A stretch of DNA of 64,000 nucleotides from a virus. Position numbers and translations under genes: made by a program. Every line of letters starts with the position of its first letter. Position 1 is the first letter of the stretch. Shown piece by piece: positions 9,925 to 62,172 of the stretch. The stretch covers positions 1 to 64,000 of IMG/VR virus record IMGVR_UViG_3300037493_001906; one strand, 5' to 3'. The notes beneath the pieces were generated by a model that did no database searches, had not been told where the DNA came from, and saw only the letters and a program-made list of their open reading frames with translations.

Positions 9925-9951
9925 TTTAGCATCAAATTTAAAACTCAATTT

Positions 9952-14136: not shown

Positions 14137-14171
14137 GGGGAAGGGCTTCGTGCTCTTCCCCTTTTTTTTTT
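14137..14171 (+). terminator. Rho-independent terminator at the convergence of the early (+) and late (-) gene blocks; possibly bidirectional
   Basis: Stem GGGGAAGGGC-TTCGT-GCTCTTCCCC followed by T10; its last base abuts the stop of the 1934 aa gene. Confidence 0.9.
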
Positions 14172-17100
14172 CAATTTCCCTTTTTAGTTGAAATAGTATT
14201 GGCTTTACTAAAGTTGGTAAGCATTTGAGCAGGGTCAGTATTAGAACCATTAAGTCCAAATGATTTACCAAAATGATTCCATACCTTATCACTGCCTTGT
14301 TGTTGCCAATCATAATTACCAACTCTTCTAGCATACTCAGCACGCTTATCTCCTGTCATAGAAAAATATATATCTGTTAATATATTCTGATAAGTATCTG
14401 TAGTAGGACCAAATGCTATTGACTTAAGATCAACAACAGAAGATATATCATCTAAGCCCCAACCAATCAAAGGAATAAATTGATCATTCTCAGATTTTAC
14501 TTGAAGCAATTGATTTAATATATGTAAGTTTATAAAACCTCCAAAATCAAATTCACCTGCTTCAGATGAAGTGAAAGGTATAGGAAGAGGTCCACTCATT
14601 TGTCTAAGCTTTTCATATCTATCTTCATCATCATCATCCCAACCAAACATAGAACTTGCAAGCCACATTAATATCATTAAGCTTATAACTTCCATAGATG
14701 TTTTAATTATAGCTTTTCTATCCTGAGTAGTTAAGTCTGCAAAGTTGGCTGTCTTAAAAAATTTAAGTATACCTTGCACAGCAGTTAAATAATAACCCTG
14801 GTCAATCTCTCCATAGCCAATGTTCCATCTTTTTTTACCATACCTATTCATAAGCATAGTAGTAAAATATCTTTTTAACCAAGTAACCATTCTACCTAAA
14901 AGGTATCTTTGCATCTCAGGTTGGTCAAGTTTTGAATAAGCACCATTTTGTTTATTCATAACTACATGTATCCTACTTTTAAAGTCTTTAAACTTTTGAC
15001 CAACTAACATCTCTCCCTGTTCATTATAAGTAATGCCCCACTCAGGATCAACACCTTCTTTAAGTTGAATCTTTCCATCTCTTAGTTCCCATGCATCCAT
15101 ATAGTTAATGGTTTTATTACCCATAGGAATTTTCTTAGTATACATCATTGCAGCAAAAGTCTGCATAGTTGCTTGTACCTCAGTCCATGCACGGAAGTTT
15201 GTTAACCATGACATAGATGCTGCATCTTTTAATAGAGTCCTAGTTGTAGCTTCACCAAACTTCTTACGGAATCTGTCTTGACTTGGATCAAATATCTCAG
15301 CAAGCTGATGCTGTAATCCTCTATCTCCTTTAGTATATGCATCACCAAAGGTTAATGCTCCCATATATTTAGTTGCCCATCCTTCACCCTTTATAAGATT
15401 AGGAGGAGTTATATCTGTACCAGCTGTTGATGTTATAAAAGCTTGGAACTTTGCACCCATTGCATTTTTAATAGCTGAAGGTATATTTAATGCAAAGAAA
15501 GAATGAGCAGCTCTTTTGAATAAAAAGTTTTGTGCTATTTGTAATTTTGCATTATCCTTTCCAAAACCTGTTGTAGTCTGACCTCTAAATTCTCTTTCAT
15601 AAAAATTATTAAATGTATCTCTTCTAACATATTTACCTTTCTTATTTAAATATGTTATTTCACCTGTGTTAATAAAATTACTTCTAACAATTTTATCAGG
15701 TTCTTTAAGATTGGTAGGGTCATTAAGAATATTTTTTAAACCCTGAGCAATAGGATTCATCTTAACTAATTGCTTATGATGTTCAGCACCATATAAATAT
15801 CTAAACATAGAATCTATAATATTTGTACTTACATCATCTACATCTAAGTTATAAAGACCTGATATAGGAATGTTTTCAATTTGATCTCCATATGCATCTG
15901 CTCTTACAAGCATATTATTTTCATCCCAATTCCATTGAGATTCACTTTCTTTACTAGTTCTTAATGTACGTATATACTCTTTAAGTCTTTCATATAACCA
16001 CATGATTGGATTATATGTAGGCTTTTTAGTTTTAACTTTTTCTTGAGTACCTACTTTTTCTTTTCTAGTTTGATAGCTTTCTAATGAAGATTTTTCAAAC
16101 CTTGGAAAATCTAAATAAAGTTTACCTTGTTTACCTAAACCTTCTTGATTCTTAATATGAACTTCTTTTAGTTTTTCTAATAGCTTAAACATCTTAGCAT
16201 CTTGAGAATTTTTATTTGTCTCATATGCTGTTTTTAATCTATGATATTCTTCATTCCTATATGGATTGTTTGGTACATTCTTAGGAAGAAACTCTCCTTT
16301 GTTATCTATGTGAAGACCAACAATCTTTTTTACTGCACCTTTAGTTCCATCCTCATTAACAATGCTAGCATCATATCCAGTTCTATATTCTTTTTTTACT
16401 GACCTAGAATAATACTTAAGCTTAGGTAAACCTTTTATTATTTCCTTTGTACCATCTAACTTTGTTATAGTAGTTGTTTCATAATACTTAGTATCATTAG
16501 GAACAATGTTATTCCAAACATATAGTCTCTCAAATGTATCTACCTTTTGCTTAGCTGCTTCACTATATGCACTTTTAGATATATGATTATTTAAAAACCA
16601 TTCTTGAAATTCAGGACTTTTCTCAGCCATCATATTAAGAAAGTCTTCATCATATATAGAGTTTATATTGTCAATAGTAAAGTAATTGTGTCCAAGTATA
16701 CTATATATATTATCATCAGCTACTTTAGATAACCAATAATTAGCAGCATCAAGATAATATTCTGTAGGGTCTTTTCTTTGAAGCTCATTTAGTTCTGCAA
16801 AATAAGTTCCTAAGTCTGCTTTTTCCTCAGCATTTAAACCTGAATTATCTTTCCTATTAAGTAATTCAAAATAGTATTTAAGTTCAGATTTTGAAAGAGC
16901 AGTCTTTTGTTTTTTTTGTGTAAGGTCAGTGAAGTCATTAAACTCTTCTACTGTAAGTCCAGTAAATCCTGCATACTCTTCCTTTGCTTTTTCAATTTCT
17001 TCTTGAGCTTTTTTTATTGTACCTATTCTTCCTTTAGGAATCTTATTACCAACAGGTTGTCCATCATCATCTCTATAGCCACTGGTTATGTCAATGATTG

Positions 17101-19975
17101 TTGTCCATTGTTTTGAAAAATCTAATTTACTTTGAGGTAGCTTAGATAGGATAGCTTGAATATTATTTATTATTTGTTTTCTTTTTTCATAAAAGGTTGG
17201 CTTTATAACTACTCTTATGTTATCATTAAGCCACATTAGTCTTTCCTTTTCATAAGCTCTTTTAAACTCTGGAGTATTAGGAGATAGTTTTAAATCAATA
17301 AGCTTTTGAAATATGACTTGTTCTTTATTTATTAAAGCATTTTGAAATACTTCAGGACGTGGTTTATATTGATAGAATTTTTTTGAAGCTTTTTTATATT
17401 CTTGTATTCTTTCTGCTATAGCAAGATCATCTCCCTCTTTTTTTGAACCATCAGGATAATACAAAGAAGCAAGAAGCTTATACTCATTCCACAACACGCT
17501 CATTTCATCAGTAACTTTCTCCACATCATATTCTCCAGTTGGACTATTGATAAGTCTCATCCTATTGAATATATCATTTCTTGCTTTAGCTGCTAATAAA
17601 CCTGCCTTATCTTTTTCAAATAAAGATTGTGTTTCATAATACTCATCAGTATACTCTTGATGAAAATAATTACGTAGAAGGGTTTTCTTTTTATCAAGAA
17701 GAACAATTAGTTTTTCTCTATCCTCTTCAGAATTAAATTTATTGAATTGAGTTTGAGCAGCATTAATATCATGGTCTAATTTATCTATATCATATCTATA
17801 ATCTTTCCACTCATTAAGTAAAGTCCACACCTCTTTAATTCCAAACTCACCTTTTTGATTAGTAAAACCCATCTTATCTACAAATCCAAGTTGTCTACCT
17901 AAACCACCAATATTTGTAAACTTAATGCCAGCATCTTTAATTAAAGGATCAAGTTGACTGATAACATCATTTATTCTAGACTGAGCCCTTGCCTCCATCT
18001 CAGTAATATTATCTTTATAGAATTTAGCAAAGCCTCCTATAATTGGATCTGTATTATATAAGTATCCTTCAAAATATGAATTAGCATAATGTGCATCTTT
18101 GCCTTCTCCTTTTAATGCTCTCTCTACTTTATCTTTAGTAACATAAAATCCATTGAAACTTGCATTGTATGCATTTTGATAAAAGACTTCTTCATCAGAA
18201 GATAAATCTTCTCCTATGTTTTTACGAGCACGTAAAGCTTGATACTTTGTATACTGTGCTTCAGGCATACCATAGAACTCTATATAAGATTTGTCTATAG
18301 CAGATTGACTAGCACCACGTTTCTTAAATGATTTGATTTGTTCTTCAAATAATTCAGCGGCTCTCTCATTCATATCCTTCCACTGGTTATAAATAATATC
18401 AGTTAGCCCTGTTCTATTAATCTCATTTATGCTATCCTCTGAACGCTCAATAGATGTCTCAATTCTATTTAGTAAAGCTACTAAAGGTGATGTTGAAGCT
18501 GACTCAGCCTTACCTAATAACTGCTTACTCTCAGCAACATACTTTTTCCAATAGCCTAGAATATGACCATAATAAAAAGCCTTATGTACATTGTCTTTAT
18601 TCTCTGGGTCTTTCTTGAGTTCTTTTAAATGTTTATCAAGTCTCTCCATCATATACTCAAGACGTATGATACTATTTATTACAGCTGTAATTTCATCCTG
18701 TACTTGATCTATATCACCCTCTAGTTCAGCCATTTTTTTATCAAGTGTCTGAGCATACTTGTTTAGATTAGAAGTTATCTCTTGTAAGTCACCTCTACTA
18801 AATTCATCAGCAAGTACTGCAGCCATTCCCTCATAGTTCTTATTTTTTCTTAAGAGTTCTATTTGTTTAGGAGCACCCTCATACATTCTTCTTGCTAGTG
18901 TAGTAATAATATTATAATGACCTGCATTAATAATATTTGTAAACTCTTCAAGGTATTTACTTATATCTTGATTGTAAGCTACTAAATCTTCTTGATTAAC
19001 ATCTTCAGTATTAATAGTTATTTTACCACCTGTTTCTAATGTTTGTGCTAAATCATTAAGTGTAGTATTAACATCAAGTTTAGATATTTTAATCCCTTGG
19101 CCAAATACTTTTCTTAATGCTTGTTTAAATGCATATAGAATATTATCTATTATTTTCTTAAAGCCCGTGGACGGTACTATATTTTGTTGTTCTAAATTAT
19201 ATGCTTTAGTAAGAGCCTTAACTAAAACCTCTTCAGCTACAAGATTTTGATATTTAATTTCTTGTTCAAATCTTTCTTGGTCATCAGCTATGTTTTCTAA
19301 TCCTCTTTTTAAATCCTCATATTCAGAATAAGCTTCAGTTAATAAACCTGGTTCAACTGCAATAGCATCTGAATATAGTTTCTTAAATAAAGCAGGATTA
19401 GTTTTTTGTATACTCCTTATTAATGGGTGACTAAACTCATGTAATACTGATTTGGTATTTATTTTGCCTTCAATAAAGTACACTTTATCTCCATAGAAAA
19501 ATGCAGGGGCCTTACCTATTACATAAGGATTTCTTGAATTCTTAGTTAGTTCAACAGCTTGTTCTGAAGTGATAACAAGATAATCAATACCCAAAGCTTT
19601 AGACATCTTGTTTGCTATCTCAACAGCCCTACTTTGTTGTGAGCCTGAAATACTAAATGCATCAGGAGACAAATCCATATTAAGAATATCTAATCCACTT
19701 GCTGTATCAGGATCTTGAAAACTAAAGTCAAAAGTTTTTGCTTTAATTTCTGCTGATTGTGTATCTCTTCTTAATTCTTCTTGCTCAGCAGATTTAGGAG
19801 CTAACCTAAAATTTAATTTAGCAATGACTTGTTCAGGTGTACCAATCTCTCTATTGTTAAGTTCAGCTTCCATGAATTCTCTCATTGCTTCTACCTTACC
19901 AAGACCTGGTGTATTAACAAGTGCTTCCCATTTTTCTTTAATAATAGGGTCACTTAAATTAGGACATGTATACAT
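14171..19975 (-). CDS. Giant virion cargo/ejection protein (1934 aa) with an N-terminal zincin-like domain
   Basis: HEFSH (19427-19441) with downstream EEVLVKAL; long helical body; hydrophobic segment EVISLMILMWLASSMFG near the C-terminus; last gene of the RNAP cluster. Its only Cys is C4. Confidence 0.75.
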   Translation of the reverse strand: MYTCPNLSDPIIKEKWEALVNTPGLGKVEAMREFMEAELNNREIGTPEQVIAKLNFRLAPKSAEQEELRRDTQSAEIKAKTFDFSFQDPDTASGLDILNMDLSPDAFSISGSQQSRAVEIANKMSKALGIDYLVITSEQAVELTKNSRNPYVIGKAPAFFYGDKVYFIEGKINTKSVLHEFSHPLIRSIQKTNPALFKKLYSDAIAVEPGLLTEAYSEYEDLKRGLENIADDQERFEQEIKYQNLVAEEVLVKALTKAYNLEQQNIVPSTGFKKIIDNILYAFKQALRKVFGQGIKISKLDVNTTLNDLAQTLETGGKITINTEDVNQEDLVAYNQDISKYLEEFTNIINAGHYNIITTLARRMYEGAPKQIELLRKNKNYEGMAAVLADEFSRGDLQEITSNLNKYAQTLDKKMAELEGDIDQVQDEITAVINSIIRLEYMMERLDKHLKELKKDPENKDNVHKAFYYGHILGYWKKYVAESKQLLGKAESASTSPLVALLNRIETSIERSEDSINEINRTGLTDIIYNQWKDMNERAAELFEEQIKSFKKRGASQSAIDKSYIEFYGMPEAQYTKYQALRARKNIGEDLSSDEEVFYQNAYNASFNGFYVTKDKVERALKGEGKDAHYANSYFEGYLYNTDPIIGGFAKFYKDNITEMEARAQSRINDVISQLDPLIKDAGIKFTNIGGLGRQLGFVDKMGFTNQKGEFGIKEVWTLLNEWKDYRYDIDKLDHDINAAQTQFNKFNSEEDREKLIVLLDKKKTLLRNYFHQEYTDEYYETQSLFEKDKAGLLAAKARNDIFNRMRLINSPTGEYDVEKVTDEMSVLWNEYKLLASLYYPDGSKKEGDDLAIAERIQEYKKASKKFYQYKPRPEVFQNALINKEQVIFQKLIDLKLSPNTPEFKRAYEKERLMWLNDNIRVVIKPTFYEKRKQIINNIQAILSKLPQSKLDFSKQWTTIIDITSGYRDDDGQPVGNKIPKGRIGTIKKAQEEIEKAKEEYAGFTGLTVEEFNDFTDLTQKKQKTALSKSELKYYFELLNRKDNSGLNAEEKADLGTYFAELNELQRKDPTEYYLDAANYWLSKVADDNIYSILGHNYFTIDNINSIYDEDFLNMMAEKSPEFQEWFLNNHISKSAYSEAAKQKVDTFERLYVWNNIVPNDTKYYETTTITKLDGTKEIIKGLPKLKYYSRSVKKEYRTGYDASIVNEDGTKGAVKKIVGLHIDNKGEFLPKNVPNNPYRNEEYHRLKTAYETNKNSQDAKMFKLLEKLKEVHIKNQEGLGKQGKLYLDFPRFEKSSLESYQTRKEKVGTQEKVKTKKPTYNPIMWLYERLKEYIRTLRTSKESESQWNWDENNMLVRADAYGDQIENIPISGLYNLDVDDVSTNIIDSMFRYLYGAEHHKQLVKMNPIAQGLKNILNDPTNLKEPDKIVRSNFINTGEITYLNKKGKYVRRDTFNNFYEREFRGQTTTGFGKDNAKLQIAQNFLFKRAAHSFFALNIPSAIKNAMGAKFQAFITSTAGTDITPPNLIKGEGWATKYMGALTFGDAYTKGDRGLQHQLAEIFDPSQDRFRKKFGEATTRTLLKDAASMSWLTNFRAWTEVQATMQTFAAMMYTKKIPMGNKTINYMDAWELRDGKIQLKEGVDPEWGITYNEQGEMLVGQKFKDFKSRIHVVMNKQNGAYSKLDQPEMQRYLLGRMVTWLKRYFTTMLMNRYGKKRWNIGYGEIDQGYYLTAVQGILKFFKTANFADLTTQDRKAIIKTSMEVISLMILMWLASSMFGWDDDDEDRYEKLRQMSGPLPIPFTSSEAGEFDFGGFINLHILNQLLQVKSENDQFIPLIGWGLDDISSVVDLKSIAFGPTTDTYQNILTDIYFSMTGDKRAEYARRVGNYDWQQQGSDKVWNHFGKSFGLNGSNTDPAQMLTNFSKANTISTKKGN

Positions 19976-19989
19976 TTATAATTTTATTA

Positions 19990-21714
19990 TTATCTAAAAC
20001 AATTGTTAAGAGCCTCTTGCACAGAATCATCATCTAATATGATTGTGTCATTTAATTGATTACCAAAGATAGCAAATTCTTTATTATTAACTTCATATTC
20101 TGCTACTTCAGCAGCACTCATATTATCTGGAAAAGTAAAGTATCTAAATCCTTTATTAGTAAATTTATATTTATCTTTTACAAAAGGTTGAAAATAAATA
20201 AGATCATTAAGGTCTTTTGCTCTACCCATATTTACTTTAGCTTCAAAGATTTGCTTCCAATCTTTCCAATAGTTATCAAATATCTCTGGGTATCTACCTT
20301 CCTTAGTTCTTAAAAAGAAATCAAGTATATATCTTTTAGGTTGTATTGTACCATCTTCTAAAGTCTCCATCTCTGTAGGGTGCTCTATATAACCTGAAAT
20401 AGTTACTGACTCAGCATTCTTATGATCCTTACCTATAAAAGTAGATTCTAAAGTCCAAGTTGGATACATATTTTTTATATTCTGATACCAACTTTGTTGT
20501 TCTAGAAAAGGAATAATTTCTTTAGTAAATTGTTTTTGTTTACGCTTACGCATTAACTCAAGACCTCTAGTTTCTAGCCAACGTAAAAACTTTGGAGCAT
20601 TAGCTTCTGAGTTAAACTGATTAAGAGTTATGACTCCATCAATATCATGAAGATCTTCACTAACTGCTCTAATCAATCTTCCATATTTTCTAATTACTTG
20701 TGATCCACTTAATTTATAATCTACAAAAGGATTATTAAATAAAGATTGAATTACTTCATTAGCAAATGGGTCTTGGTCTAAAGTTTTTTGATAAAACTTT
20801 TGTTCTAGATCTTCTCCTTTTAAATTTTTAAATACTCCAGGTTCTACCTCTTTATAGCTTCTAATAAATTTACTATATTCTCCTTTATATACATCATCAA
20901 CAATATCAAGTATAAGGTCTTTTAATTCCTCTTCCTTCATATTTGTATTAATAGCAGAACCAAATATTTTTTCATTTACCCAATTCCAAATTCTATTAAA
21001 TATATTTTTTGCAAAGTCTTGTTCATATTTATTTTTAAAGCCAAGATTTTCAAAAAAAGTTTTATCTACATCTGGATTATTTCTTTTTTCCCCTATAAAC
21101 TTATTATCAATACCTATTTGTAAAGCTTCAGCTATCATATGAATAATAGCTTGTCTATGTGCAAATGGATTAAATTTTTCATTATAGAATTCAATATCCT
21201 CACTAACTACTTCATGTACATTAGCATACTTATCATATACTTCTTGATACTTAGACCACTTATCAATGTTCTTCCAAATCTCTAAAGACAGTTTAGATTT
21301 CTTACCCATGAATGTATATATAATACTAGCACTCTGTAAGGCAAGGTCTTTATTTGTTATATTAGATTTTAAAGCTAAATATTTTTGAAGAGTATCAAAA
21401 GCTGCAGTTGGCTTACCATAGTTTAAATTAAGATTATCCAATATGTCATCTGCATTCTCTACTACTTCAATGTTCAAACCTTTAATAAAACCTATAAGAC
21501 CTTCTTTAAGTTTAGTATTAAATTTGTCTTGAATCTTATCACTATCTGAAGCATCTCCATTATCTATTCTAAGAAGCTCATCTGCAGTAGGAAAATCAAA
21601 TGTATCATTATTTTCCTGCCACTTGGCAATCATATAATCTAAATCATAATTAGGTATACCTGTGGCTTTACTTAAAGCTTTAAACTCAGGGCTATTTATA
21701 TTAATACAATTCAT
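19990..21714 (-). CDS. Cargo-cluster protein (574 aa): degenerate zincin-like domain plus Pol-beta-type nucleotidyltransferase domain
   Basis: LSGS(337-338)...LHDIDG(357-359)...YILDFF gives the hG[GS]...DhD...hD triad. NIFNRIWN is shared with the RNAP zincin region. Cys only at positions 3 and 572. Confidence 0.65.
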   Translation of the reverse strand: MNCININSPEFKALSKATGIPNYDLDYMIAKWQENNDTFDFPTADELLRIDNGDASDSDKIQDKFNTKLKEGLIGFIKGLNIEVVENADDILDNLNLNYGKPTAAFDTLQKYLALKSNITNKDLALQSASIIYTFMGKKSKLSLEIWKNIDKWSKYQEVYDKYANVHEVVSEDIEFYNEKFNPFAHRQAIIHMIAEALQIGIDNKFIGEKRNNPDVDKTFFENLGFKNKYEQDFAKNIFNRIWNWVNEKIFGSAINTNMKEEELKDLILDIVDDVYKGEYSKFIRSYKEVEPGVFKNLKGEDLEQKFYQKTLDQDPFANEVIQSLFNNPFVDYKLSGSQVIRKYGRLIRAVSEDLHDIDGVITLNQFNSEANAPKFLRWLETRGLELMRKRKQKQFTKEIIPFLEQQSWYQNIKNMYPTWTLESTFIGKDHKNAESVTISGYIEHPTEMETLEDGTIQPKRYILDFFLRTKEGRYPEIFDNYWKDWKQIFEAKVNMGRAKDLNDLIYFQPFVKDKYKFTNKGFRYFTFPDNMSAAEVAEYEVNNKEFAIFGNQLNDTIILDDDSVQEALNNCFR

Positions 21715-21718
21715 AATT

Positions 21719-24700
21719 TTATTTACCTCCTAAACATTTAATTTTGTGTTCTCTCCACTCATCATCTTTAATAGCCCAAACATGCTTCATACCAATACCA
21801 AACATCTCAGTTAACTTTGCTCCATATTTAGTCCATTGGTCTTTAATAGTATTAGGTACAGTAGATTGAGTTTGTGATGCATTAGCTAAAGCTAGTACAG
21901 CTTTTCTATCTCCACTTGTTTCAGGCCATGCCATTAGCTTACCAGTAGTACCAGATATAATCTGATTCTTTTTATTTACTATGTATGTAGAATTTTTATG
22001 TGTAACCACTACTGCTCTACCTTCTTTAACTGCTAAGTTAGCAAATATCTTATTCCTGTCTACACTATCTTCTTTAAATACTTCTTGACCAGATTGATTA
22101 AATATATTATTTTCTTTTATAGTATAGGTTTGAGTTTGTTTACCTTTAGGAGTATAAGTAATAGTTCTATCCCCAGTGGTAACTTGTGGTTGAGTAATAA
22201 CTTTAGAAACTTCTTTAGTATTATCAATACCTATTTCAGCAAGTTTTGTATTAAGATATTTCCAAGATTTAGGAGCTGTGTTTTTCATGTCAGAAATTTG
22301 ACCTTCACCAAAAGGCATTTCAGCACTAAACTTAATCCCTTTATAGTTTGACAGATTTTGTTTAATTATATCAATATCATCATCAATTTCTTGTTTGAAT
22401 TCTTTAAATTTATCATCTGTCCACTGAGTTCTTTTATCATCTACCATAGTAGTAATAGGAAAAGCATTATCTAATCCTCTTATTACAGCTTGTGTAGTTC
22501 CAGGATAAGTTTTACCTAATCCATATATAGCACTATATCTTGTCTCATCTCCTATCTTATTGGACCCAGAACTACGTTTTGCATTATCTGTAAATAAATA
22601 TAAGTAATCACTATCTTTTTTTACAGACTCTCTAGTGAACCTTTGTGATTTATCTAGAGGAATTACTTCAACACTAGTAGATGATTGAGTAACTTTAGCC
22701 TCTTTAGTTTTTTTAGTACTAGTCTTTCTAGGCTTTTCAGTTTCTTCTTTTACTTCCTTATACTCTTTAATAGCATATACATATCTAGCTTCTTCACCAG
22801 TAACATACTTAGAAGAAAAACTATTGTTCTTCTCAAAGTCCTTCATATTAGTAAAGCCTTCTCCTTTAGCAAATACATCTACAGGAACCTTATTAGATAA
22901 ACCTGGAATAGCTTCACCATACTTGTCTATCTTAACAAAGTTATCACCTTGTCTGACATACTTACCAAGTAGTTTCACTGCTACCCTAGTGCCATCATTA
23001 GCTGTGTATATACCAGTTTCTAATTTTTCCTTTTCAGTTCTATTAGTAATATACTTAGTACCAGCTTTAATCTTAGATATGTTCTCTCCTTTAAATTTAA
23101 TAGGCCCTAACTCTTCATAAGTGATGTTACTATCATCCAACATAGCATTTAATCTATGTTGTTGAGTATCTTTTTGTATCTCTTTTTTATCTCTAGCAGG
23201 ATTATAATCTTGTATTTGCATATCCATTACTCTATATCTAGAGCGTTTGTTCTTTGCATAGTCCATAAAGCGATCATTGAACTTATCCAAAGTATTATAA
23301 TTTGCATTCTCAACAAAGTCCTTAGTATAGTTTTCAAGATCTTGTAATAGTGCACTTTGGTCTACTAGTCTATTAAGAGAGTATATACCTGAAGTATTAA
23401 AACCACTTTGGAACATAGCATATGTAGCAAACTTATTAAAGAAAGCAGCTACTCTATCTTTTTCAGCTTGAGAAGCATCAATATCTAATTTAGTTGAGTC
23501 AGCAAGTTCTAATAGATTTTCATGATAAATATTAAGTAAGTCTGCCTCCATATTAGGATCATTGAGGATTATATTACTTACTCTTTCTCCATCTATAATA
23601 TCTGAACTAGCAGCTAAATTTTGAAGTAATAAGTATTTCTTTACTAATTCTGGGTATTCTACTTGAATGTTTACTAATTGGTCAGCAGCTGTAGCATTAC
23701 TATTGAACATATGCCATATGTTATTAGTATTCTCCAAGGCTAAATCTGTTAAAAAATCTTCATATACAAGTTCTTCAATCTTTCTTGCTCTAAAGTCTTT
23801 TGTCTCACCTTTTACTTTAGGTATACCATTAAAGTATTCAAACTTATTTCTTACATCTAGTCTGGTTTTATACTCATCCCATGTACCAGATCTTTCAATT
23901 CTATCTCTGATAAGCTCATTTTCTACCATAAACCTATAGAAGCTTTGTGGAGTTTTAAAGGTTTCAGGAAGCATATCTTCTATAGGAACATCTACACCAT
24001 CTACATCAATAGCTCTTTCCATACCACCATCAATAATAGCATCATATTGATCTTCAAGTAACTGTTTATTTATAAAGATTACTCTCTTACCTTTTACAAG
24101 ATCTATTTTTACAGCTTGACCTTCATCAGTAAAAGACTTAATCTCTATTCCTTTATAGTTTTTAATAGTATCTAAGTCAAACTGATTTTGAGCATTTTGG
24201 TAGATAAATGCAGGAAGAGCATTCCTCCATCTACTTATAAATTTATCTTTATCACCATATAAAGCATTAATTTCTGGGCCTGATGTTTCTTGTATCAACT
24301 CAGATAAACTATTCATAATAACAGGATTAGTACCTAACTTAAAGAAATCCTTCCATAAGTTAATTTGGAAATCTTGTATAAAGAAACTACCAATAGGTGA
24401 ATCCCTTATAATAGAATCTAAGAAATCATCAGGAAGCATAGCATTTTGACTCATTGTATTAAACAAATCTATTTTGCTTTGTGCTTCAAACAAGTTAGTT
24501 GTTCTTGATGTATCAAAATTAGTACTTTGTTTTACACTAGTAATAGTGTCAGCAATATCTTCTAATTCTAAGAAATGTAAAAATACAGCTATATCATCAG
24601 CACTATATTTATGAGCTTTTTTTGAAGTTACAGTTTGATGAAAATCTTTAATTCTATTTAAAAGATTTGCTTCAACTTTATCTTCATCAAAAAATTTAAT

Positions 24701-27700
24701 TTGAGTACCTAATGGACCTTCTGCTTTATCTTTATTAGTAAGGCGCAAAGTCACATCATTTAAATAAAATTGGCCTTTATCTCCTCTAAGCAACTTTGGA
24801 TTAAATCCATTATTAATAAGTATTTGGTTTCTTGCATGTCCTTTTGCTCCACCAAATAAAGGAGCTGTATCCATAGGATCAGCATAGGTACTATCTGCTA
24901 ATTTTTTCTTTTTTACATAATCTCTAACAATAGGTTGAGATACAAAATAAATAGCTTGCTTAAGTGGAACACCTGCCTGTATCATAAATAATAATGTTCC
25001 AGATAATTCTTTATTACCCTGGATGTTAAATATCCATGCATCTTTAGCTACGTCAACCCAGCCATTGATCATTTGAGCAATTATCTCAGAAATACTATTT
25101 TCTCCATTAGCATCATATAATTCAGATAAAGAAATAACTTCTTCATTCTTAGAATTCTTAACTGTATTATGCTTTAATAATATAGTAAGTCTTTTTTCTA
25201 AATCAGCTACCTCAAGATTTTTTACATAATAAGGTTTAAGAACAGCACCAATTCTATTAAATACAGTATTGTAAGTATTATCTACAGCACCAAGACCAAG
25301 AGTTTGTTTACCTACATTATTAGAAGTATGCTTATAAAGGTTATACATGTACTCAAAAATCTTTGTGCCACTGATTCTATTTATTCTAGCATCTAATTCT
25401 TTGAGTTCATCTTTTTCTTTAGTAGTAGCTTTTCCTTGGTCCTCTTTATCTTTAAGCAACTTTAATCTCTCACGGTCCTTTGGTAAGTCTTCATCTATTC
25501 TAGATTTAGTATTATATGTAGAGACATATTGACTTAACTCATCAGCTATAGGCTTAAGTAAATCAGTACTATTAGGAGTAACCATAGCTACAAAATTAGC
25601 ATCAAGCTCTAGTATTCTTTGCATACTATTTAATAACCTGTTCTCTAATCCTTCTGCTGTAGTTGTATCTGTATGTAGGGAAGCAAACTTTGGAGAATGT
25701 TTTTTAATAAAACTAATAACAAGTTTATCATCTTCAGTTAAATCAGGGCTCTTTCTATCTGCTAATATTCTTTCAATATTTTGGTTTGATAAATCAAGAT
25801 CTTTTCCTTCTGAATCTTCTGCTCCTAGTTTATATAATTCTTTTCTTCCTCTTTCTGTTGTCCAATACTTCCAATTAACATTAGAAGAAATATTAGGCAT
25901 CATAAAAGTAATCTTATCAATATCGTAGTCACCACCTGTTTTAGCTACAAGTTCTGGTGGCAATACAACTGCATTACCAATTGCTGGATCTAAAAACTCA
26001 TATACTTCAGCAAACTCCATAGAGTTTAATAACTGTACAGGAATACGTGTTCCTATAATAGTAATCATTTGTCTATTATCTCCAGTATTAAGCCACTCTT
26101 CATTTTTAAGCATTTCATTAAGACGCTCCCTAGTTTCTATTGGCTTCTTATCATTATGCTTTAAATATAATAGATTAATAAAATCTCCTTGTAAAGAGAT
26201 TTTAATTTTCATAGCTCTAGTTATACCATTAGAACCTTTACCTTTTTCATAAAATGGTAATTCAGTTTCTCCATACTTAGCTTTTTGAGCTTCAGTCATG
26301 TTTGCAGATGAAACATATTCCCATCCAGTTCCTGCTACTTGAACAAGAGCTTCTCCATTTATCTTCTGTTTAACTATTCTATTCATTACTATAGAAGTAA
26401 GAATTTTTTCTATCTTCTCAGCTGAAATAGAAACAGAAAGGTCATGTGCTAATTTACCTTTTTCATTTTTCTTTATGAAGTTAAGCTCATGATCTGCTAA
26501 ACCTTGTCTACCAAGTTCATTAACTAGAAAATCTTGAAGCTTATCATTTAATACAACCTCACCATTAACAACCTCAAGATTCATATCTTTCTTGAGTTTA
26601 TTCATTTTGAATGTTGTAAGATTGATTATATCATCTTCATAGTTCTTTATAAGAGTATAGTATTTTGAATTAGATTTTCTAGCTTCTTCTCTTTTTTCAA
26701 ATAGCTTTTTAAACCTATCACCAAAATTACCTTTATCAATATACTCATTAAGATCTTGAAGTTCTACTGGTGTAAGACCTAATGCATCCCAGTTCTTTCT
26801 TCTTTTTTCCTTAGACAATGAACTTTGAAAATCTAAAGGCATTTTATATGCCATAAGACCATTCTCAATAAGCTTACGCATCTGAGTAGGTATAATAACA
26901 GTGCCTTTAAATTCAGGAGCAATCCTTAATTGATCTTTTAAAAATTGTAAGTAAACAGTATTAGGTGTTATTACATCATTGTTAAAGTCTCTACCATCTA
27001 CATAGAATTTGTCTTTAACAGTTTTACCATTCTCAATTTTAAATATATTAGAGATCTTAGAACCAGATTCAAAGGTAGCATAATCAATACCGTCCCTCAT
27101 CATTCTATCATGCAACTTCTCTAAGTTAGTTCCCTCAATAACATTAGGTATAAGAGGTACCAAAGAGAACTTATGCATTGCATTTAATGGAGGCATATCA
27201 TCTCCAGTTTGAATAGCTCCTGCATATTGGAATTTTTTTACAGGGAAGAAGTTTAATACAGCTACTTTATCTACATGAACTCCATTTACTATATCATTAT
27301 ATAAGTCTTCTTGAGCATCAGACCATTCACTTTGTAACATAGAAACAACTCTATAAAAGTCAAAAGTAATCCAACCTTGACCATCTGCTTCATTCATTTC
27401 CTTATAAGCTTTTAAATTCTTCTCTAACTTTACAGTTAACTCTTGAGTGAATTTTTTAAGTTTAAGTTTATCCCCTTTGAAGTTTTTAGTAGCTTTTGCA
27501 ATAGCATCTTTTTCAATAGCATCATAAATAGTTTTATAGTATTTAGAAGGTACAATATTATCTTTAAAGATACCTGCTTCATAACTACCACTTGTTGATA
27601 GCATTTTTTCTTGAATGTCTTTTGATCCATCAGCAATTCTCTTAGCAGCCCATCTTCTACCTAAACCATTAACATAGTTAATGCTATCTTCATCTGTGGC

Positions 27701-30700
27701 CATTATATTACCAGTAGAACCAAAACCAGCATTACGTTTATGAAACTCTTCTTTAGCAAGATTATATTGAGCAATATCACCATAAAACATTACCATTGAC
27801 TCAACATTATTTATAAAAGTATTAACTACAAAGGATCTAATAAGAGCGTTTTTAGTTTGTTTATCTGATTCAGTAGCTGGACCATCTATAATAATATCTT
27901 CAGCTAAATCTCTAGTTTTATCTATAAGGTTATTATCTATATATAAACTATTTAAATCAAAATGTTTAGCTACTTCATTAAATTGCTTCTCAAAATATTT
28001 AGTTACATCTTGTCTGATTTGTTTATCTAAATCTGAATTATAATCTAGTACATCTTCAAGAGTCAATACATCTTTTTTAGAAGCTAATGTTTTATTTATA
28101 GCCTCCATTATGTCTGTCCTAATTTTTTTTGTAGATAGAACATCTTCAAAAACAAGTATATTCTGACCTTGTTCTAAATATCTAGGGTCATAGTTAAGAC
28201 TTTTTTCTTTAGATAAAAGTTTAAGTTTTGATATTCTTTGAATCTCAGAATCTAAATAACCACTAAGTATGTCATCATAAGTCTCCATATAACCTGGTAC
28301 TTTAGCTGGACTTCTTTCAGATGCTTTTTGTGAATAAAACTTAATTGTATCTACGTAAAGATTATTAGTACCACCATTTAAAAGTTTATTAATAAAAGTA
28401 ATATAGGAATTACTTTTATCTGCATGTCGCATAAGCTCAGTTTTACCTGATAACAACATTGCATGAAAATCAATAATAGATTTAGTATACTCATCTGATG
28501 AAGCTGATGATACACCTTCTTTATTACTTCCATCTATAAATTGACCACCACTAAGATTAGCAAGATTGATTTTTACATCTTTAGCATTTATATCAATACT
28601 AGTCTTACGTTTTAATCCTTTTTTATTTTTATTACCTTTTTTATATTCTGATAAATCAAATATTGAATTAAACCATACAGAGCTTTTAATCCAAGGATTT
28701 TTTGCCATATCATATTGACTCATATGTGGCAAAGCAATAAGTTCTGCATAACTATCTACACTATTAATTGTGTCTATAGTAATACTAATACTATTATGTA
28801 AACTTTGTTCATATTGACTTTTACCTTCTGCATTAGTTACATTAAAAGTAGAGACACTATCTGAGTATCTAGCTTCTAAACTAGCTAAAGCATTTAATAA
28901 ACCCATATTTCCTTGAAATATGCCATTTAATCCATATACCTTAGCTTGACCTTTTTCTAATAAACTATTTAATTTTTGAAGAATATAAATTGGCTTACCT
29001 GTATTGTTCTCTTCCAGATCAGATATTATATCATCATTATAAGAAAGCTTTACTCCTATATCATTTAAGAAATCAATTACAGAAACATCATCTGCAAAAT
29101 TTTCAGAATACTCATCATAGTATTTATTAACTATACTTTGAATATCTAGATAACTCATATTAAACTTATCTTTATCTATAAGTTCTTTATGAATATAAGT
29201 TGTTGGTACATTATTAAAAGCATTAGTCCATCTAGTAATAGTCTTACGAGTTTCTGAAGAGCTAGCCCCGTATGTAGCAGAGTAATTTACAACTTGTGCA
29301 CCATCTTCTTCTAATTCAGTTGTTTTTCTAATGTTTAATTGAAGAAGTGGAATATTAGCTTTACAGAATGTCTGCCAAAAAGATAACCAAAGCTTAAACT
29401 CTTTATCTGTTTTTGCTCCTGTGGGCGGACCAAGTTTTTGTATAAGTTCATTAATAACTGGATCAAACTTTGCTGCTTGTTTTAAAGCATCATACATAGA
29501 AATTTTATCTAGTTTACCTCTTGTAGCTTTAACAACTTTATTCCAAGCAACATATGATTCTGTTAAATCACTAACCCCTAAATCATTTTTTATAGTTTCT
29601 CCATCATCATCATATTTGTGTAAACTTTTAAGTAGGTATTTAATTTCTGGTGCAGCTTGACTCATTATTGAATCTTCATTACCATTCTTCTTACCAATAC
29701 CATCTCTGCCTTTATTCATAGTGTCTGCTTCATTTGTTACATCAAATAAAGCTGTCCTATCTTCATCAGTTATAAATTTACTTTTTTCAATATGCCAAGC
29801 TATAATACCTTTATCTTTATTTTTAGTAAGATTTTTAGTATCCCCAAAATTCTTAATTACAAACTCTAATAGGTCAATCTTAGACTCATATCTTGATTTT
29901 GATTCAGGTCTTATACCTTTTTTACTAGCTTCTTTATCTGCTAATTCTTGTTTTATATCAGGTAGTATCTTTGATTCTAATCTTTTTTTAACTAGTAAAT
30001 ATGCATAGCGTAGTTTCTCTTTATCTTTAAATAATTCAGTAGTATACTTATAAGAAGTTACTCCAGTTTTTTTTGCTGATCCAACAATCAACTCATTAAC
30101 AATATCAGATATTATTGAGTCAATTGATTTTGTAATAAGATTTGATTTTTGATAATCAAGCATTTCAATACCCGTAGTTTTAACTAAGGGCTTAATACCT
30201 GTCTTATTTAAGACACCAATTGTTTTATCTCTATTGTTACTATTAAATGAAAAATTAGTTAAGTCACCTATTCTTAATTTTTCATAAAGTTCATACACTC
30301 CTTCAAAACCTAAAGGATTAGATACTACATCAGAATAATTTGCTTTACCAAATAGTTCTTTTAAAAAATTCCAGATTCTATTAAATATATTGTTTCTTAC
30401 TGGAGCCTCTTTATCAATCTTTGTTCCTCCAGATAACATGTAGTTTCTAAAGTCCTCAGCAAGGTATTCTTCTAGTTGCCATACATCAGCATCTGCAAAA
30501 GTAGTTATCTTACCATCATATGCAGTGAAACTACCTTTTCTTTTACGTGCTTCTGAATAAAGTTTTTGTTTTTGTTCTTTAGTTAAAAAAGTTTGAGTAA
30601 AGCCATGCCATGCTTCATGATATAAATCAGAATAATCTGCACTTCTTTCTTTATTTACAGTGCCATCTTGATTATGATAAGTGTAAAGTTTAATACCATG

Positions 30701-33562: not shown

Positions 33563-33567
33563 TGTTA

Positions 33568-36500
33568 TTATATATTACAATTGTTTATATCATTAATCAT
33601 GTCATCAAAGAAATTTTGAGAAGTTTTACCTAACTTAGTTACATCAGTTTCTACTGAATCTACTAAATCTTTTATCTCTTCAGTATCATCTTCTTGAACA
33701 TCTTTATAACCCTCATCCATATCTTCAATATCATCTTGAGTAGGTTTAACAGCTGCTTTAGGACCAGAATTAAATCCATTAACAATGTGAGCAATTTGGT
33801 CTTTATAGTCATCAATATCAATCTCCATAGAATTTGCAAAGTTTTTTGAAGCCCACTCAAATTGAGTAACCAAAGATACAATATTATCTTCATTTGACAC
33901 AACATACATCTTCTTGCCATTCTTTAAAATTACTAATTTTCCTTTAGTTAAATCTTCCCATTTAACTGAATTGGCTAGCTCATTCATTTTAGCATTAACA
34001 AGAGTTGTTATTTTAATAGAAGCTGGGATTATGCCACTAGATTTTAAATCTAGAGCTTTATTATGCCACTCAGTTAAAGAATCTTCATCATTAATTTTTT
34101 CATACTCTTCCATTAGACTAGTATACTCATCTATAGTATTTTCTTCTTCTTCTTCTGTTTCTTCAGCATCAAACTTAAGTTGTTTTGATTTACTTAAGTT
34201 ATCAAGCATATCAAAAAACTTAGCTTTATATTTTTTATAAATCTCATCAATAAGTGTATCCTTTTGAGACTTCATATACTCTTTAACTGATGCAGGATCA
34301 ATAGAATAATTATCTACAATATCATTTAAGGACTCTTCAATATCTTTTATTTTTTCATCTAAAGTTAATTTATCAAGTGTTTTATACTTTTCAATAAAAT
34401 CTGCAATAGTATCAAGTGTATCAATTACTTTTTCATAATATTTTTTAGCTTGCTTAATCATTGCTTCAGGATTCTCTACTTCAGTATAAGGCTTAAGCAT
34501 ATAGCCTTTAGCATTTTCACCTAATAAATCAATAGTATATCTATCACCTGTTTCTTGATCTTCTAGAATAACTAGCTCTTCTTTTTTTCCAGTTTCTTCA
34601 TTAACAAATACTCCAGCTTTTGTAATGACTTCTACAGGTCTTTCATTTAAATTCATAGAACCAGCTTCAGTAGTTACAATACCACTAAAGTTATGTTTTT
34701 TACCAACAGTATAAGGTAAGTCTGATTTAAGTTTTGATTTAGGAGATATTACTTCAGGTTCTTCATCTCTATCATATTCTTGATTGTAATCATCAATAAT
34801 ATCTAAAGCAGTTCCTCCAGATTGTACATAGGATTTAAAGTCATCATCAGCAAGAATAGCCTCAGTATCTCCTTCTACAGCTTCATCTAACTCTTCTTTA
34901 AATTGTTTATATCCTTTTATTAATTTATCAATAAGATTACCTTCTAAAGATTGCATTATAGCAAATGAAGTTGTACTTCTAACAGGTTCATTAGGACCTA
35001 GTTCTTCTTCTTCTGGTTGTTCTGGTGGTTGCTGTGAGACAGGAGTTTTACCTGCTGGTTTCATCTCAGTAGGTTTACCTTCTTCTGTAGTTGAAGTTTC
35101 TGCAGTAGTAACTTTTTTACCAGCTAGTTCAGCGTACTCTGTTATTACTTTTACTGCTTCCTCATATTTAGGATTGTCCTTATTAACAATTTCTTTATTA
35201 GTTACATTATAAAAGTTTTCAGGAACATTAAAATCATTAATGCTTTCTATATCATCAGGTAAAACAAATAGTCCTAGATCATATATCTTATTAAGCATGT
35301 CATTTTTAAGACGTAGTTTATTAAAGTTTTTTAAAGCATTATCCAAGAAAAACAATCTTTGTGTTTTTATTTCACTAACAATATTAGACTGCAATTTCCT
35401 ATATTGTTCAAAGTAGTCTGGATTACTTAAAAAGTTAATTGCTTTTACGGTACTAAAAGAATCTACTTGTAAATGCAAAAAGTCTTTTATCTGCCTAAAA
35501 GCTTCATCTAGTTGGTCATCAAAAGCATAACCCTTTTTCATATCAGTAACATGGCCAAGGTATTCTTTATATGTATTGTATAGTTCACCTATGGCAAAAC
35601 TAACATCATCTCCATATACTTTATCAAATTCACCTTTTACAGTAGCAGCTTTAACTACTGAAATACTTTTTATACTTACATATTTAGTTTTACCAGAAGC
35701 AGTTTCTACAAGAACTTTATCTCCTTTTATATCTACAATTTTAAACTTCTCTGCAGTTTTATCATGAGTAGCAATGGCTCCTGGTCTTACTTTAAGTTGT
35801 TTAGCTTTTTCACTTCTTTCTTTTTTAGTCATGGGTTTTTTCTCAGCCTTAAGCTGAGTCATATAAAAGTCCCGTGTACTATCCCATTTTTTAAGTAATT
35901 CAACTTGTTTTTCTAAAGGTTTAACCTGCTTCTGTTGTTCAGGAGTACCTTTCTTCATAATACTGATTTGGTCACTCAATGTTTGAATAGTAGTAGTTCT
36001 AGCTATTCCATCAATAAGGAGACTTACATCATGTGCTGCTGCATTAGCAACAGGGGTACCATTTTGATTTACATTAACTAAGTTTTGAAACACTTCACTT
36101 TGGCCAGCAAGATTTCTAGAGATAGACTCCATCCTTTCAGATATTCTAGTAAAATCTTCCATAGAAAAAAGAAGATCAGCTACAGTATTTTCATGAGCTT
36201 CATAGTCATGATACTCTCTGTCAAATCCTTCAGGATTTTTCTTTTGAGAATATAGCCAAGGATTAAATGGATTAGGAAATTTATCTTCTACTTTCTTATA
36301 CCTTAGATCATATCTCTCTATTCTTTCTTTTAGTGTATTTAAATTTTTTCTATTACTACCTGATTCTTTAACTGTAGTATTAGTTGCATCTGCAAGATCT
36401 TGATCACTTAGTTTAAGCATGTCATCTGCCCAATCTGTAACTAATTTTTTATTACCAGTTTTAATAATATGATGAAAATACTGAGCATTACCTTGATCAG

Positions 36501-38382
36501 CCATATCAAAAGCTGTCTTTGTATCTCCTCTATCTATAGCTTTATTTCTTTCTTCAAAAGCAAGTTTAACTGCAGTGGCCATAGTATTATTATGATCACC
36601 ATATATTTGAAAATTATTCAATACATGATTAGCAGCATTTAATGTACTATTTGATTCTTGTTCTTGTCTTTCTTTTTCTAAAGCTACCTTATCTGTTTTT
36701 GTATAAGCTGTAACTGCTTTTTGTTTTACAGTTTGATATGCAGCAGTACCTCCCTGGATAATACTACCCATTAAGTAACCTGATAAAAAAGTATTTAAAC
36801 CTTCTGCGTTAAATTGATTATCTACTCCTTTGCCTAATGCATCTATTACTTTATAATATCCAACCTGTGATGGGTCTTCATATATTTTTCTATAATAATC
36901 TTTATACCCATAAGATATGGCTTCCTGCATACTTTCTTGTAAACCTTCTGCTAAGTTACCTAGTATATAGCGTTTACTCCAAGGTAGATAAGCTGATTTA
37001 GTTAAAACATCAAATGCTTTTTTTCTAGTGCTTTTAACACCAGTTTCATATGCAGCTTGTCCAATTTTCCATTCCTTTGCTGCTGTCTTCTTTAAAAATC
37101 TATTGCCAGCATGTTCTATTGATTTTGCAACTTGAGCACCTGGTTTCCATCCTTTAAATAAATTTTCAAATACTAATTTATTAGTAAAATAAATAGCACC
37201 AACATTTGCTAGTTTAACATTTGCTTTAGTATTTTGTGCAGCTTGATAAATTTCTTCAGCTACTTTTTGATCAGGCATACTACCATGATCATTAAAATAT
37301 TTATCAGTTAATTCATCTTGTAAATCTGTTGAAGCACTTTCTCCTTCAAATCTTGATTCACTATAAGCAAGGTTAAGTTCACGGGCATCTCTATAAAAGT
37401 TACCAAAAGTTTTAGTAGCTTTTGCAAGTTCCCCCATATTCTTTACACCTCTACCTCCCTGATATAAATCCTTTGCCCATTGTGTAGTATGTGATAACGG
37501 ATTTAAAAACTCAAGTGTTCCTACTGCAGCTGTCTTTGCCATATTTCCTGCATTAGAAAGTGTCCAGAAATCTTTAGCCTTATCTACTGCTGATAATTCT
37601 CTAATTAATTGACTTGATCTATCTATACCTTTTGCAAGTTTACCAAAGATCATACTATTTCTTGCAATCTGTCCAGGAACAAGAGCACTAGCTCCTCCCA
37701 TAGTAAATGCTTCTGCAGCAGTAAGTGCAAAATCTTCAAGTATAACTTCAGATATAATACCAAAAGTATATGTAGATTGTAATACTTGATTATTTATCCA
37801 AGATCCAATTCCTGGTCTAGAAGACATACCAATGTCCATTCCTCTTTGCATTGCTTCATTGGCATCTTTTTCATCTCCATAAACAGATTTAAAAGCTGAA
37901 TAAACAAGAGCAGGAATTTGAGTAGTCATTCTACTAAAGTCATCCCACCAGGAACCTTTTTCATTATACCAAGTCTCATTATCTCTGTATGGAGAAAAGC
38001 CTATCTTACCAAATAAGTTATGACCATAGTATCTTTCAAAATTACCTGACTTAGTATCATTACCAAATGAATAAGACTTTGCATACTTTAAAGGATCTTC
38101 TGCATAACTAGCACCTTGCATAAAGTTTTTTACACCTTTAACAAAGTCTTCTGTATTATCAGTTTTATTCTTAGCACCAGGCATAGGACCTGTATGATAA
38201 TTACCAACTACTTGTTCAACTGCTAAACTGACTGGAGGTACAGGATCTGGTAATACAGGTAGTATAGGTGAGTTAACTTTAAGAGCAGCTAATGGATCAT
38301 ATGCAGCTTCTGTCTCAATAGGAGACATATTGAGACTAAGATCTGGTTGATCTTGGTTTGGTAAATACATTTCTTCTCCCAT
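33568..38382 (-). CDS. Giant virion cargo/ejection protein (1604 aa)
   Basis: Immediately upstream of the RNAP; Gly/Ala-rich amphipathic segments, an SH3/KOW-like beta module (about 35690-35800) and an acidic C-terminal third. Its only Cys is C1602. Confidence 0.75.
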   Translation of the reverse strand: MGEEMYLPNQDQPDLSLNMSPIETEAAYDPLAALKVNSPILPVLPDPVPPVSLAVEQVVGNYHTGPMPGAKNKTDNTEDFVKGVKNFMQGASYAEDPLKYAKSYSFGNDTKSGNFERYYGHNLFGKIGFSPYRDNETWYNEKGSWWDDFSRMTTQIPALVYSAFKSVYGDEKDANEAMQRGMDIGMSSRPGIGSWINNQVLQSTYTFGIISEVILEDFALTAAEAFTMGGASALVPGQIARNSMIFGKLAKGIDRSSQLIRELSAVDKAKDFWTLSNAGNMAKTAAVGTLEFLNPLSHTTQWAKDLYQGGRGVKNMGELAKATKTFGNFYRDARELNLAYSESRFEGESASTDLQDELTDKYFNDHGSMPDQKVAEEIYQAAQNTKANVKLANVGAIYFTNKLVFENLFKGWKPGAQVAKSIEHAGNRFLKKTAAKEWKIGQAAYETGVKSTRKKAFDVLTKSAYLPWSKRYILGNLAEGLQESMQEAISYGYKDYYRKIYEDPSQVGYYKVIDALGKGVDNQFNAEGLNTFLSGYLMGSIIQGGTAAYQTVKQKAVTAYTKTDKVALEKERQEQESNSTLNAANHVLNNFQIYGDHNNTMATAVKLAFEERNKAIDRGDTKTAFDMADQGNAQYFHHIIKTGNKKLVTDWADDMLKLSDQDLADATNTTVKESGSNRKNLNTLKERIERYDLRYKKVEDKFPNPFNPWLYSQKKNPEGFDREYHDYEAHENTVADLLFSMEDFTRISERMESISRNLAGQSEVFQNLVNVNQNGTPVANAAAHDVSLLIDGIARTTTIQTLSDQISIMKKGTPEQQKQVKPLEKQVELLKKWDSTRDFYMTQLKAEKKPMTKKERSEKAKQLKVRPGAIATHDKTAEKFKIVDIKGDKVLVETASGKTKYVSIKSISVVKAATVKGEFDKVYGDDVSFAIGELYNTYKEYLGHVTDMKKGYAFDDQLDEAFRQIKDFLHLQVDSFSTVKAINFLSNPDYFEQYRKLQSNIVSEIKTQRLFFLDNALKNFNKLRLKNDMLNKIYDLGLFVLPDDIESINDFNVPENFYNVTNKEIVNKDNPKYEEAVKVITEYAELAGKKVTTAETSTTEEGKPTEMKPAGKTPVSQQPPEQPEEEELGPNEPVRSTTSFAIMQSLEGNLIDKLIKGYKQFKEELDEAVEGDTEAILADDDFKSYVQSGGTALDIIDDYNQEYDRDEEPEVISPKSKLKSDLPYTVGKKHNFSGIVTTEAGSMNLNERPVEVITKAGVFVNEETGKKEELVILEDQETGDRYTIDLLGENAKGYMLKPYTEVENPEAMIKQAKKYYEKVIDTLDTIADFIEKYKTLDKLTLDEKIKDIEESLNDIVDNYSIDPASVKEYMKSQKDTLIDEIYKKYKAKFFDMLDNLSKSKQLKFDAEETEEEEENTIDEYTSLMEEYEKINDEDSLTEWHNKALDLKSSGIIPASIKITTLVNAKMNELANSVKWEDLTKGKLVILKNGKKMYVVSNEDNIVSLVTQFEWASKNFANSMEIDIDDYKDQIAHIVNGFNSGPKAAVKPTQDDIEDMDEGYKDVQEDDTEEIKDLVDSVETDVTKLGKTSQNFFDDMINDINNCNI

Positions 38383-41351: not shown

Positions 41352-41405
41352 TTTTTTTATTGTAAATTTATAACAAATATTTAAAGTTTAATAAACATAT
41401 AAAGT

Positions 41406-44558: not shown

Positions 44559-44563
44559 ATTAA

Positions 44564-47227: not shown

Positions 47228-47279
47228 GTGATATATTTTATGCTACTAATTTACAAATTTATTTTTAAACATTATAAGT

Positions 47280-58714: not shown

Positions 58715-58718
58715 TGTT

Positions 58719-59393: not shown

Positions 59394-59394
59394 G

Positions 59395-59982: not shown

Positions 59983-59993
59983 AATAATACACC

Positions 59994-60006
59994 TTACTAT
60001 AATATA
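59994..60006 (-). promoter_or_regulatory. Candidate late-promoter element TATATTATAGTAA (copy 1)
   Basis: Exact 13-bp match to 62173..62185; both are intergenic and just upstream of an ATG. Confidence 0.5.
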
Positions 60007-60047
60007 CGTAATTTTTTTAAAGTTTAAAAATAAACTTTTAATCTGAC

Positions 60048-62171: not shown

Positions 62172-62172
62172 A

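Follow-up and report, generated by a model that had tools for sequence, protein, structure and literature searches.

No phages of the human gut are more abundant than the crassviruses, and it is an open problem how they pack and inject an RNA polymerase (RNAP) cargo of ~700 kDa or more that is invisible in the crAss001 cryo-electron microscopy (cryo-EM) map. That problem is raised here by four consecutive genes in a 64,000-nucleotide (nt) stretch of viral DNA, positions 1 to 64,000 of IMG/VR record IMGVR_UViG_3300037493_001906, which we call the window. The genes encode proteins of 1604, 3947, 574, and 1934 amino acids (aa) that are almost devoid of cysteine except at their ends. Could these terminal cysteines join separately translated proteins into one thread? 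An earlier note on this DNA had proposed such a head-to-tail linkage, and its open reading frames (ORFs), lengths, Cys positions, and codon coordinates were all exact upon retranslation. We report that a terminal-Cys rule is general among relatives of this locus: Cys pairs are found where genes are split, and none are found where genes are fused.

Translation of the four genes gives 7 Cys in 8059 residues. Each of the six termini facing a neighbor has one of these Cys at a distance of 3 to 5 residues, and both outer ends of the series are Cys free (Table 1). The seventh, C1400 (29363-29365), is the single internal Cys of the 3947-aa protein and is not conserved. If 7 Cys were placed randomly, all six inner windows of 5 residues would contain one with P ~3e-16. 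Across the whole 118-kb genome, terminal Cys occur on both sides of 3 of 79 co-directional adjacent gene pairs, all within this series, and the Cys content of the remaining genes is ~1.5%. The three C termini share the pattern DD-x7/8-C-x2/4-stop, and the N termini read M-x(1-2)-C. The final residues of the 3947-aa protein are CLGGK.

Table 1. Cargo genes of the window with their cysteines, the gene boundaries, and the polymerase motif (window coordinates; vRNAP, virion RNA polymerase)
Feature	Position	Strand	Description
First member, 1604 aa	33568-38382	-	Lone Cys C1602 (33577-33579), 3 from C terminus; N terminus without Cys
Junction 1, 1604-aa gene/RNAP gene	33563-33567	-	Gap of 5 nt, out of frame
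Second member, RNAP, 3947 aa	21719-33562	-	Terminal C4 (33551-33553) and C3943 (21734-21736)
DYDID (aa 2545-2549)	25916-25930	-	Motif; DFDxD-type catalytic motif of crAss vRNAPs (10.1101/2020.03.07.982082)
Junction 2, RNAP gene/574-aa gene	21715-21718	-	Gap of 4 nt, out of frame
Third member, 574 aa	19990-21714	-	Both ends tagged: C3 (21706-21708) and C572 (19999-20001)
Junction 3, 574-aa gene/1934-aa gene	19976-19989	-	Gap of 14 nt, out of frame
Last member, 1934 aa	14171-19975	-	Lone Cys C4 (19964-19966); C terminus without Cys

Sequence comparison identifies the four-gene region as the RNAP cargo block of a crAss-like phage and the 3947-aa protein as a crAss-type vRNAP, because that protein carries the catalytic motif and matches phi14:2 vRNAP by profile. 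The motif reads GGDYDIDK at aa 2543 to 2550, where all relatives have GSDFDIDK. A profile of the motif region searched against the Protein Data Bank (PDB) matched 6VR4_A, the phi14:2 vRNAP, with E = 2.2e-27; a phmmer search of the PDB with the whole RNAP found no match. The block is flanked by giant companion proteins and lies on one strand, downstream of tail and cargo genes, in the same order as in phi14:2 and p-crAssphage. The 1604-aa protein is homologous to the first series members of relatives (24 to 29% identity). Scans of the four proteins against Pfam and PHROGs gave a sole match, DUF7831 in the RNAP tail, and left the other three proteins without a family; megablast and tblastn searches of a phage collection with the window and with the 574-aa protein gave no match. 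The RNAP-block proteins of crAss001 and phi14:2 are packaged in virions, and injection into the host is assumed for them (PMC10172136; 10.1101/2020.03.07.982082). The best explanation for the four window proteins is that they are virion-packaged, host-injected cargo that has been purged of Cys except for the terminal ones.

Relatives were collected in three IMG/VR scans (~110, with 25 to 60% identity), and a junction was taken as the boundary between consecutive large Cys-poor ORFs, which left 133 junctions after removal of duplicates. Cys was present on both sides of 121 of these and on neither side of 12; none of the 133 was one-sided. At 118 junctions, the Cys residues lay no more than 10 residues from both ends (1 to 9 residues from the end on the C-terminal side), and 3 more had a C-side Cys 18 to 21 residues from the end. 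The N-side Cys occupied residue 3, 4, 5, or 6, and the C-side Cys was mostly 1 to 4 residues from the end. As the earlier note anticipated, the terminal Cys are thus conserved in relatives: they always come as C-plus-N pairs, they track fission, fusion, and insertion, and they leave the outer ends bare. The series comprises 2 to 6 genes, and its first N terminus and last C terminus are always Cys free. Complete series proteins (145 distinct ones; 343,994 aa) held 206 terminal and 25 internal Cys.

Eleven of the 12 Cys-less junctions are boundaries between an upstream nonseries protein and the first member. The twelfth, in L069, arises from a frameshift within a single RNAP gene. At ~9940-10112 of this IMG/VR contig, one frameshift cuts the gene into 2181 plus 1226 aa, and the downstream reading frame stays open as far as the upstream stop. 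Because this frameshift comes without a Cys pair, we do not read the split as a gene boundary but attribute it to an assembly error or a programmed shift. In contig L120, the whole series is fused into one 5002-aa protein and the terminal Cys are absent. No Cys was found at the split position in fused homologs, and the idea that fused proteins retain relic Cys pairs was rejected, since none were found. Fused "polyprotein" forms of the crAss RNAP block have been noted by Drobysheva et al. (10.1101/2020.03.07.982082); their modules and module order are identical to those of the split forms, but the Cys are lacking. Split forms with Cys pairs look like the fused thread with disulfides replacing peptide bonds.

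Named phages follow the same pattern. In phi14:2, the sole Cys of gp078 (1797 aa) is its last residue, vRNAP gp077 (2180 aa) has C3 and C2179 only, and gp076 (1421 aa) has C3 only. In crAss001, the sole Cys of gp47 is C2339, 3 residues from the end, gp50 has C5, C1334, and C2404 (9 from the end), and gp49 has C5 only. Three further phages have no middle protein: p-crAssphage (gp45 with a Cys 2 residues from the end, gp44 with C3), Flavobacterium phage Fpv1 (gp33, 4401 aa, with a Cys 2 from the end, gp34 with C3), and crAss002 (gp32 with a Cys 2 from the end, gp33 with "MSC" at codon 33 of the annotated ORF). The annotated gp33 start of crAss002 (L153, NC_055828, 11088-23825) lies 32 codons upstream of this "MSC," which matches the gp44 start of p-crAssphage, and by the terminal-Cys rule the downstream ATG is probably the true start. 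A scan with the p-crAssphage gp44 N terminus returned only contigs that were 94 to 98% identical. The cultured phages phi14:2 and crAss001 thus have a homologous RNAP, the same block architecture, and the same terminal-Cys code as the window phage, which differs from them in that it has four members, one of them an additional 574-aa link with a tag at each end, and in that its RNAP is much larger (3947 aa).

One alternative explanation for these data is that the Cys codons arise as a side effect of a nucleotide-level signal at the junctions, such as translational coupling, RNA structure, or a promoter, or that they reflect chance or an annotation artifact. Within the window, such a signal is conceivable: all six terminal Cys are encoded by TGT and lie within ~15 nt of stop or start codons. 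In relatives, however, 14% of the Cys codons are TGC (86% are TGT), the junction gaps span -4 to +120 nt, and the location of the Cys shifts by 1 to 9 codons. Moreover, crAss001 gp47 is encoded on the strand opposite gp50 and gp49 and is not adjacent to gp50, and the tags were retained after the inversion that separated the partner genes. Gene adjacency, on which the earlier note had relied, is therefore not needed. Chance is opposed by the window probability given above. The crAss001 strand arrangement, the 133-junction survey, and the codon and gap variation effectively refute a nucleotide-level signal, and we give this explanation almost no credence. Since both Cys codons are used, gaps are variable, and the crAss001 tags survive strand inversion, we conclude that selection acts on the protein and not on the DNA. 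The distance of the Cys is fixed to the terminus and not to a folded domain, and variable inserts of up to ~95 residues can directly follow the Cys.

Any linkage must be posttranslational, as had been argued from the gaps, which we confirmed to be out of frame. A translational polyprotein made by readthrough or frameshift fusion is ruled out by the stop codons and the out-of-frame gaps of 5, 4, and 14 nt that follow them, and by the -4- to +120-nt range in relatives. Split inteins are likewise ruled out: just 0 to 8 residues follow the C-terminal Cys and 2 to 5 precede the N-terminal Cys, and no intein family was matched in Pfam by the four proteins. Lipoprotein and CaaX-type signals were rejected as explanations of the terminal Cys.

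The RNAP C-terminal tails are highly divergent, and when they or the N-terminal modules are aligned, no column except the Cys is invariant. The C-terminal tails of relatives are enriched in acidic residues at positions -4 to -8 before the Cys, a helix-cap-like [ST]-D-[DE]-E is often found at their start, and the Cys marks their end. The DD-x7-8-C tail described in the earlier note is present in all three tails of the window, but it does not hold as a strict motif in relatives, in which the DD spacing varies and acidic enrichment is all that is shared; we rejected it in that form. On the N-terminal side, a module family with the pattern M-x-C-P-N-x-x-[SD]-P ... G-x-x-x-A ... W stands at the front of different proteins depending on the lineage, namely, the RNAP in some and a 574-type or 1934-type protein in others (RNAP N termini of L118, L119, L121, and L096-L107; window positions 19900-19975). 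This M-x-C-P-N module looks like a portable tag of ~40 residues.

The 574-aa protein, which had been suggested to be an insertable link, behaves as an inserted, double-tagged link when the window is compared with its nearest relatives. By RNAP and 1934-aa protein, these are L053 and L062 (36 to 40% identity), which have three-gene series, align with the 1934-aa protein from residue 1, and lack a 574-type domain anywhere in the locus. The 574-aa protein is 52 to 61% identical to the N-terminal domain of 2342- to 2540-aa proteins of another sublineage, in which the domain has the N-terminal Cys only. Because L053 and L062 lack the domain and it resembles the N-terminal domain of another sublineage, the module was apparently acquired from that other crAss sublineage and became a separate protein with Cys at both ends, located between the RNAP and the 1934-aa protein. 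The best tree of the 574-type domain has 4 changes between split and fused states, of which strongly supported branches force only 1. Further small double-tagged links of 328 to 689 aa occur in relatives.

An AlphaFold2 (AF2) model of the 574-aa protein had a predicted local distance difference test (pLDDT) score of 59, with flexible termini; the C-terminal helix at residues 562 to 573, which carries C572, was modeled with a pLDDT of <50. Prediction of a complex between the C-terminal 90 aa of the RNAP and the N-terminal 90 aa of the 574-aa protein gave a score of 0.16, which speaks neither for nor against binding. A core at residues ~285 to 470 of the 574-aa protein was modeled with a pLDDT of 80 to 94 and contains an invariant EDLHDIDGV motif. 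Foldseek searches with this core gave weak matches only, to Pol-beta-like nucleotidyltransferases (Pol lambda, OAS1, and small alarmone synthetases; E >= 0.045), and the 574-aa protein may be a candidate injected nucleotidyltransferase.

The terminal Cys could in principle serve separately, each anchoring its protein to the capsid, the portal, or other cargo, mediating homodimerization, or marking the protein for processing or modification. The tails lack a conserved interface, which agrees with such roles, as does the existence of one-sided C-terminal Cys in cargo-like proteins of Intestiviridae (p-crAssphage gp47 and gp48 and crAss002 gp30). Separate roles are hard to reconcile with the absence of one-sided junctions among 133 and with a first N terminus and a last C terminus that never carry Cys. 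They also would not require joint gain or loss of both Cys at each fission or fusion, and the inserted 574-aa module is tagged at each end. We therefore consider separate roles improbable. Because the both-or-neither rule is strict and the outer ends are bare, we argue from these sequence patterns that the Cys at the C end of one protein acts together with the Cys at the N end of a different one. The Intestiviridae proteins in question lie upstream of the RNAP block in p-crAssphage (L032) and crAss002 (L153); their lone C-terminal Cys, in ends of the form ...CGG.../...SCR, has no N-terminal partner adjoining it.

Our best reading, which we hold to be fairly probable, is that the virion-packaged cargo forms a head-to-tail disulfide chain that is ejected unfolded and released in the host. 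The acidic, probably helical C-terminal tail of each protein would contact the N-terminal module of the next, and the two terminal thiols would form an interchain disulfide within the virion. The 1604-aa protein, the RNAP, the 574-aa protein, and the 1934-aa protein would in this way be joined, in that order, into an unbranched thread of ~8,060 residues, a "virtual polyprotein." Links placed at the ends and a near absence of internal Cys would let the thread unfold and traverse the portal and the tail channel as one chain does, and the reducing host cytoplasm would free the separate proteins after ejection. We infer which C end pairs with which N end, as well as the role of the link in packaging, ordered ejection, and release.

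As the linking chemistry, disulfide is the simplest, because there is a single Cys per side and no other conserved ligand. It would also accord with precedents in phage A4 and in the crAss001 virion. Virions of crAss001 contain several intersubunit disulfides, and gp47, gp49, and gp50 are packaged in them (PMC10172136). In cyanopodophage A4, also named Anabaena phage A-4L, cryo-EM revealed a disulfide between gp27 Cys1715 and gp26 Cys5 in the pre-ejectosome, with the C-terminal helix of gp27 in a cleft of gp26 (PMC12002296). In the A-4L genome, we found that gp27 (1717 aa) has Cys1715 as its sole Cys, that gp26 (1114 aa) has Cys5 as its sole Cys, and that the two genes are adjacent. The A4 proteins are thus like the crAss series in being virion-internal, ejected, and Cys free apart from a lone Cys near the upstream C end and the downstream N end. 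They are unlike it in that a single link joins two A4 proteins within a pentameric ring and is described as a local stabilizer rather than a rule (PMC12002296), and no RNAP is involved, whereas the crAss series has 1 to 5 links in series, occurs across a whole phage order, and tracks fission, fusion, and insertion.

The terminal thiols might instead link neighbors through a shared Zn or Fe ion or through other thiol chemistry, such as thioester- or thioether-type ligation. Both-or-neither pairing needs only that the two Cys act jointly, the C-terminal tails are acidic, and metal bridges, unlike disulfides, would form in a reducing cytoplasm; no redox enzyme was found in the genome, in a search made uninformative by an unmatched Erv1 control. 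Set against these points, there is one Cys per end with no conserved His, Cys, or Asp column beside it, and two ligands are insufficient for a stable Zn site. Splicing-type chemistry is opposed by the absence of an intein-sized fold and of an Asn preference before the N-terminal Cys, which is preceded by A, I, S, V, or N. In A4, finally, the structure with the same signature is a plain disulfide. Linkages of this kind are in our view quite unlikely, and the metal bridges that the earlier note offered as an alternative are unsupported, there being no other conserved ligand near the Cys.

Several points weigh against a disulfide chain. A single internal Cys is tolerated in about one-sixth of series proteins, and the tails contain no conserved docking interface beyond the Cys that would account for specific pairing. 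The one-sided C-terminal Cys of the Intestiviridae cargo-like proteins outside the series also count against it. The cytoplasm in which assembly takes place is reducing, and the habitats of gut crassviruses are anoxic. No thioredoxin, glutaredoxin, or Erv1/ALR-type oxidase was found in the genome, in a search that was uninformative since the Erv1 control was also unmatched. The cryo-EM map of crAss001 does not resolve the cargo density (PMC10172136). The A4 precedent is an analogy only, without sequence homology to crAss proteins: phmmer searches with A-4L gp26 to gp29 against all series ORFs gave no match at E <= 0.01.

A broader version of the disulfide chain is possible, although we would bet somewhat against it. 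Terminal Cys would constitute a generic, portable "cysteine clasp" that replaces the peptide bond wherever an injected polyprotein is split, so that modules could be split, shuffled between lineages, and inserted, as with the 574-aa link of the window, while the cargo remained one covalent thread of 6,000 to 14,000 residues. Reduction in the host would time release and perhaps RNAP activation.

Other viruses share parts of this arrangement. The ejected proteins of coliphage N4 (vRNAP gp50, gp51, and gp52) contain 0 Cys in 4294 aa. N4 is like the crassviruses in having a giant injected vRNAP with companion ejection proteins that avoid Cys; it is unlike them in lacking terminal Cys, in having a polymerase of an unrelated family, and in having its RNAP as a single polypeptide. 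The absence of Cys in N4 is consistent with general selection against Cys in proteins threaded from the capsid. In polyomaviruses and papillomaviruses, capsid disulfides arise in the extracellular particle and undergo reduction upon entry, but they link capsid subunits laterally and do not join cargo end to end.

Full-text literature searches found no description of the crassvirus terminal-Cys rule, and terminal Cys go unmentioned in papers on the phi14:2 vRNAP (preprint), the crAss001 structure, and N4 ejection proteins. The view that no such system had been described therefore stands for the crassvirus rule and fails for a single C-to-N disulfide, which is known from A4 (PMC12002296). New are the order-wide rule, the multilink chains, and the coupling to fission, fusion, and insertion; the kind of link is already known. 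A rule that predicts which protein ends are joined provides a model that can be tested for the order and stoichiometry of the cargo and for its ejection and release. It can also be used to locate true gene starts (crAss002 gp33), frameshifted assemblies (L069), and injected giant ORFs in uncultured phages, and it suggests a natural design for redox-cleavable protein concatenation.

Two HExxH motifs within the cargo are conserved in relatives: HEFSH at aa 179 to 183 of the 1934-aa protein (19427-19441, minus strand) and HEAWH at aa 982 of the RNAP (30605-30619, minus strand). Both are candidates for the zincin-like domains reported in crAss RNAP-block proteins. Beyond the cargo genes, the virion proteome is split sharply into a Cys-rich and a Cys-free class. 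The upstream virion genes at 38385-51680 are also Cys poor; their termini are Cys free, and Cys occurs solely as close internal pairs. Examples are C129/C135 and C249/C252 in the proteins encoded at 38385-41351 and 44564-47227 (both on the minus strand), of which C129/C135 is kept at positions 128/134 in two relatives, and the close pairs suggest intramolecular disulfides or metal sites. Just a few kilobases from the cargo genes, a run of six ORFs at 57213-63973 (minus strand) has 3.5 to 9% Cys and probably encodes tail-fiber or receptor-binding proteins.

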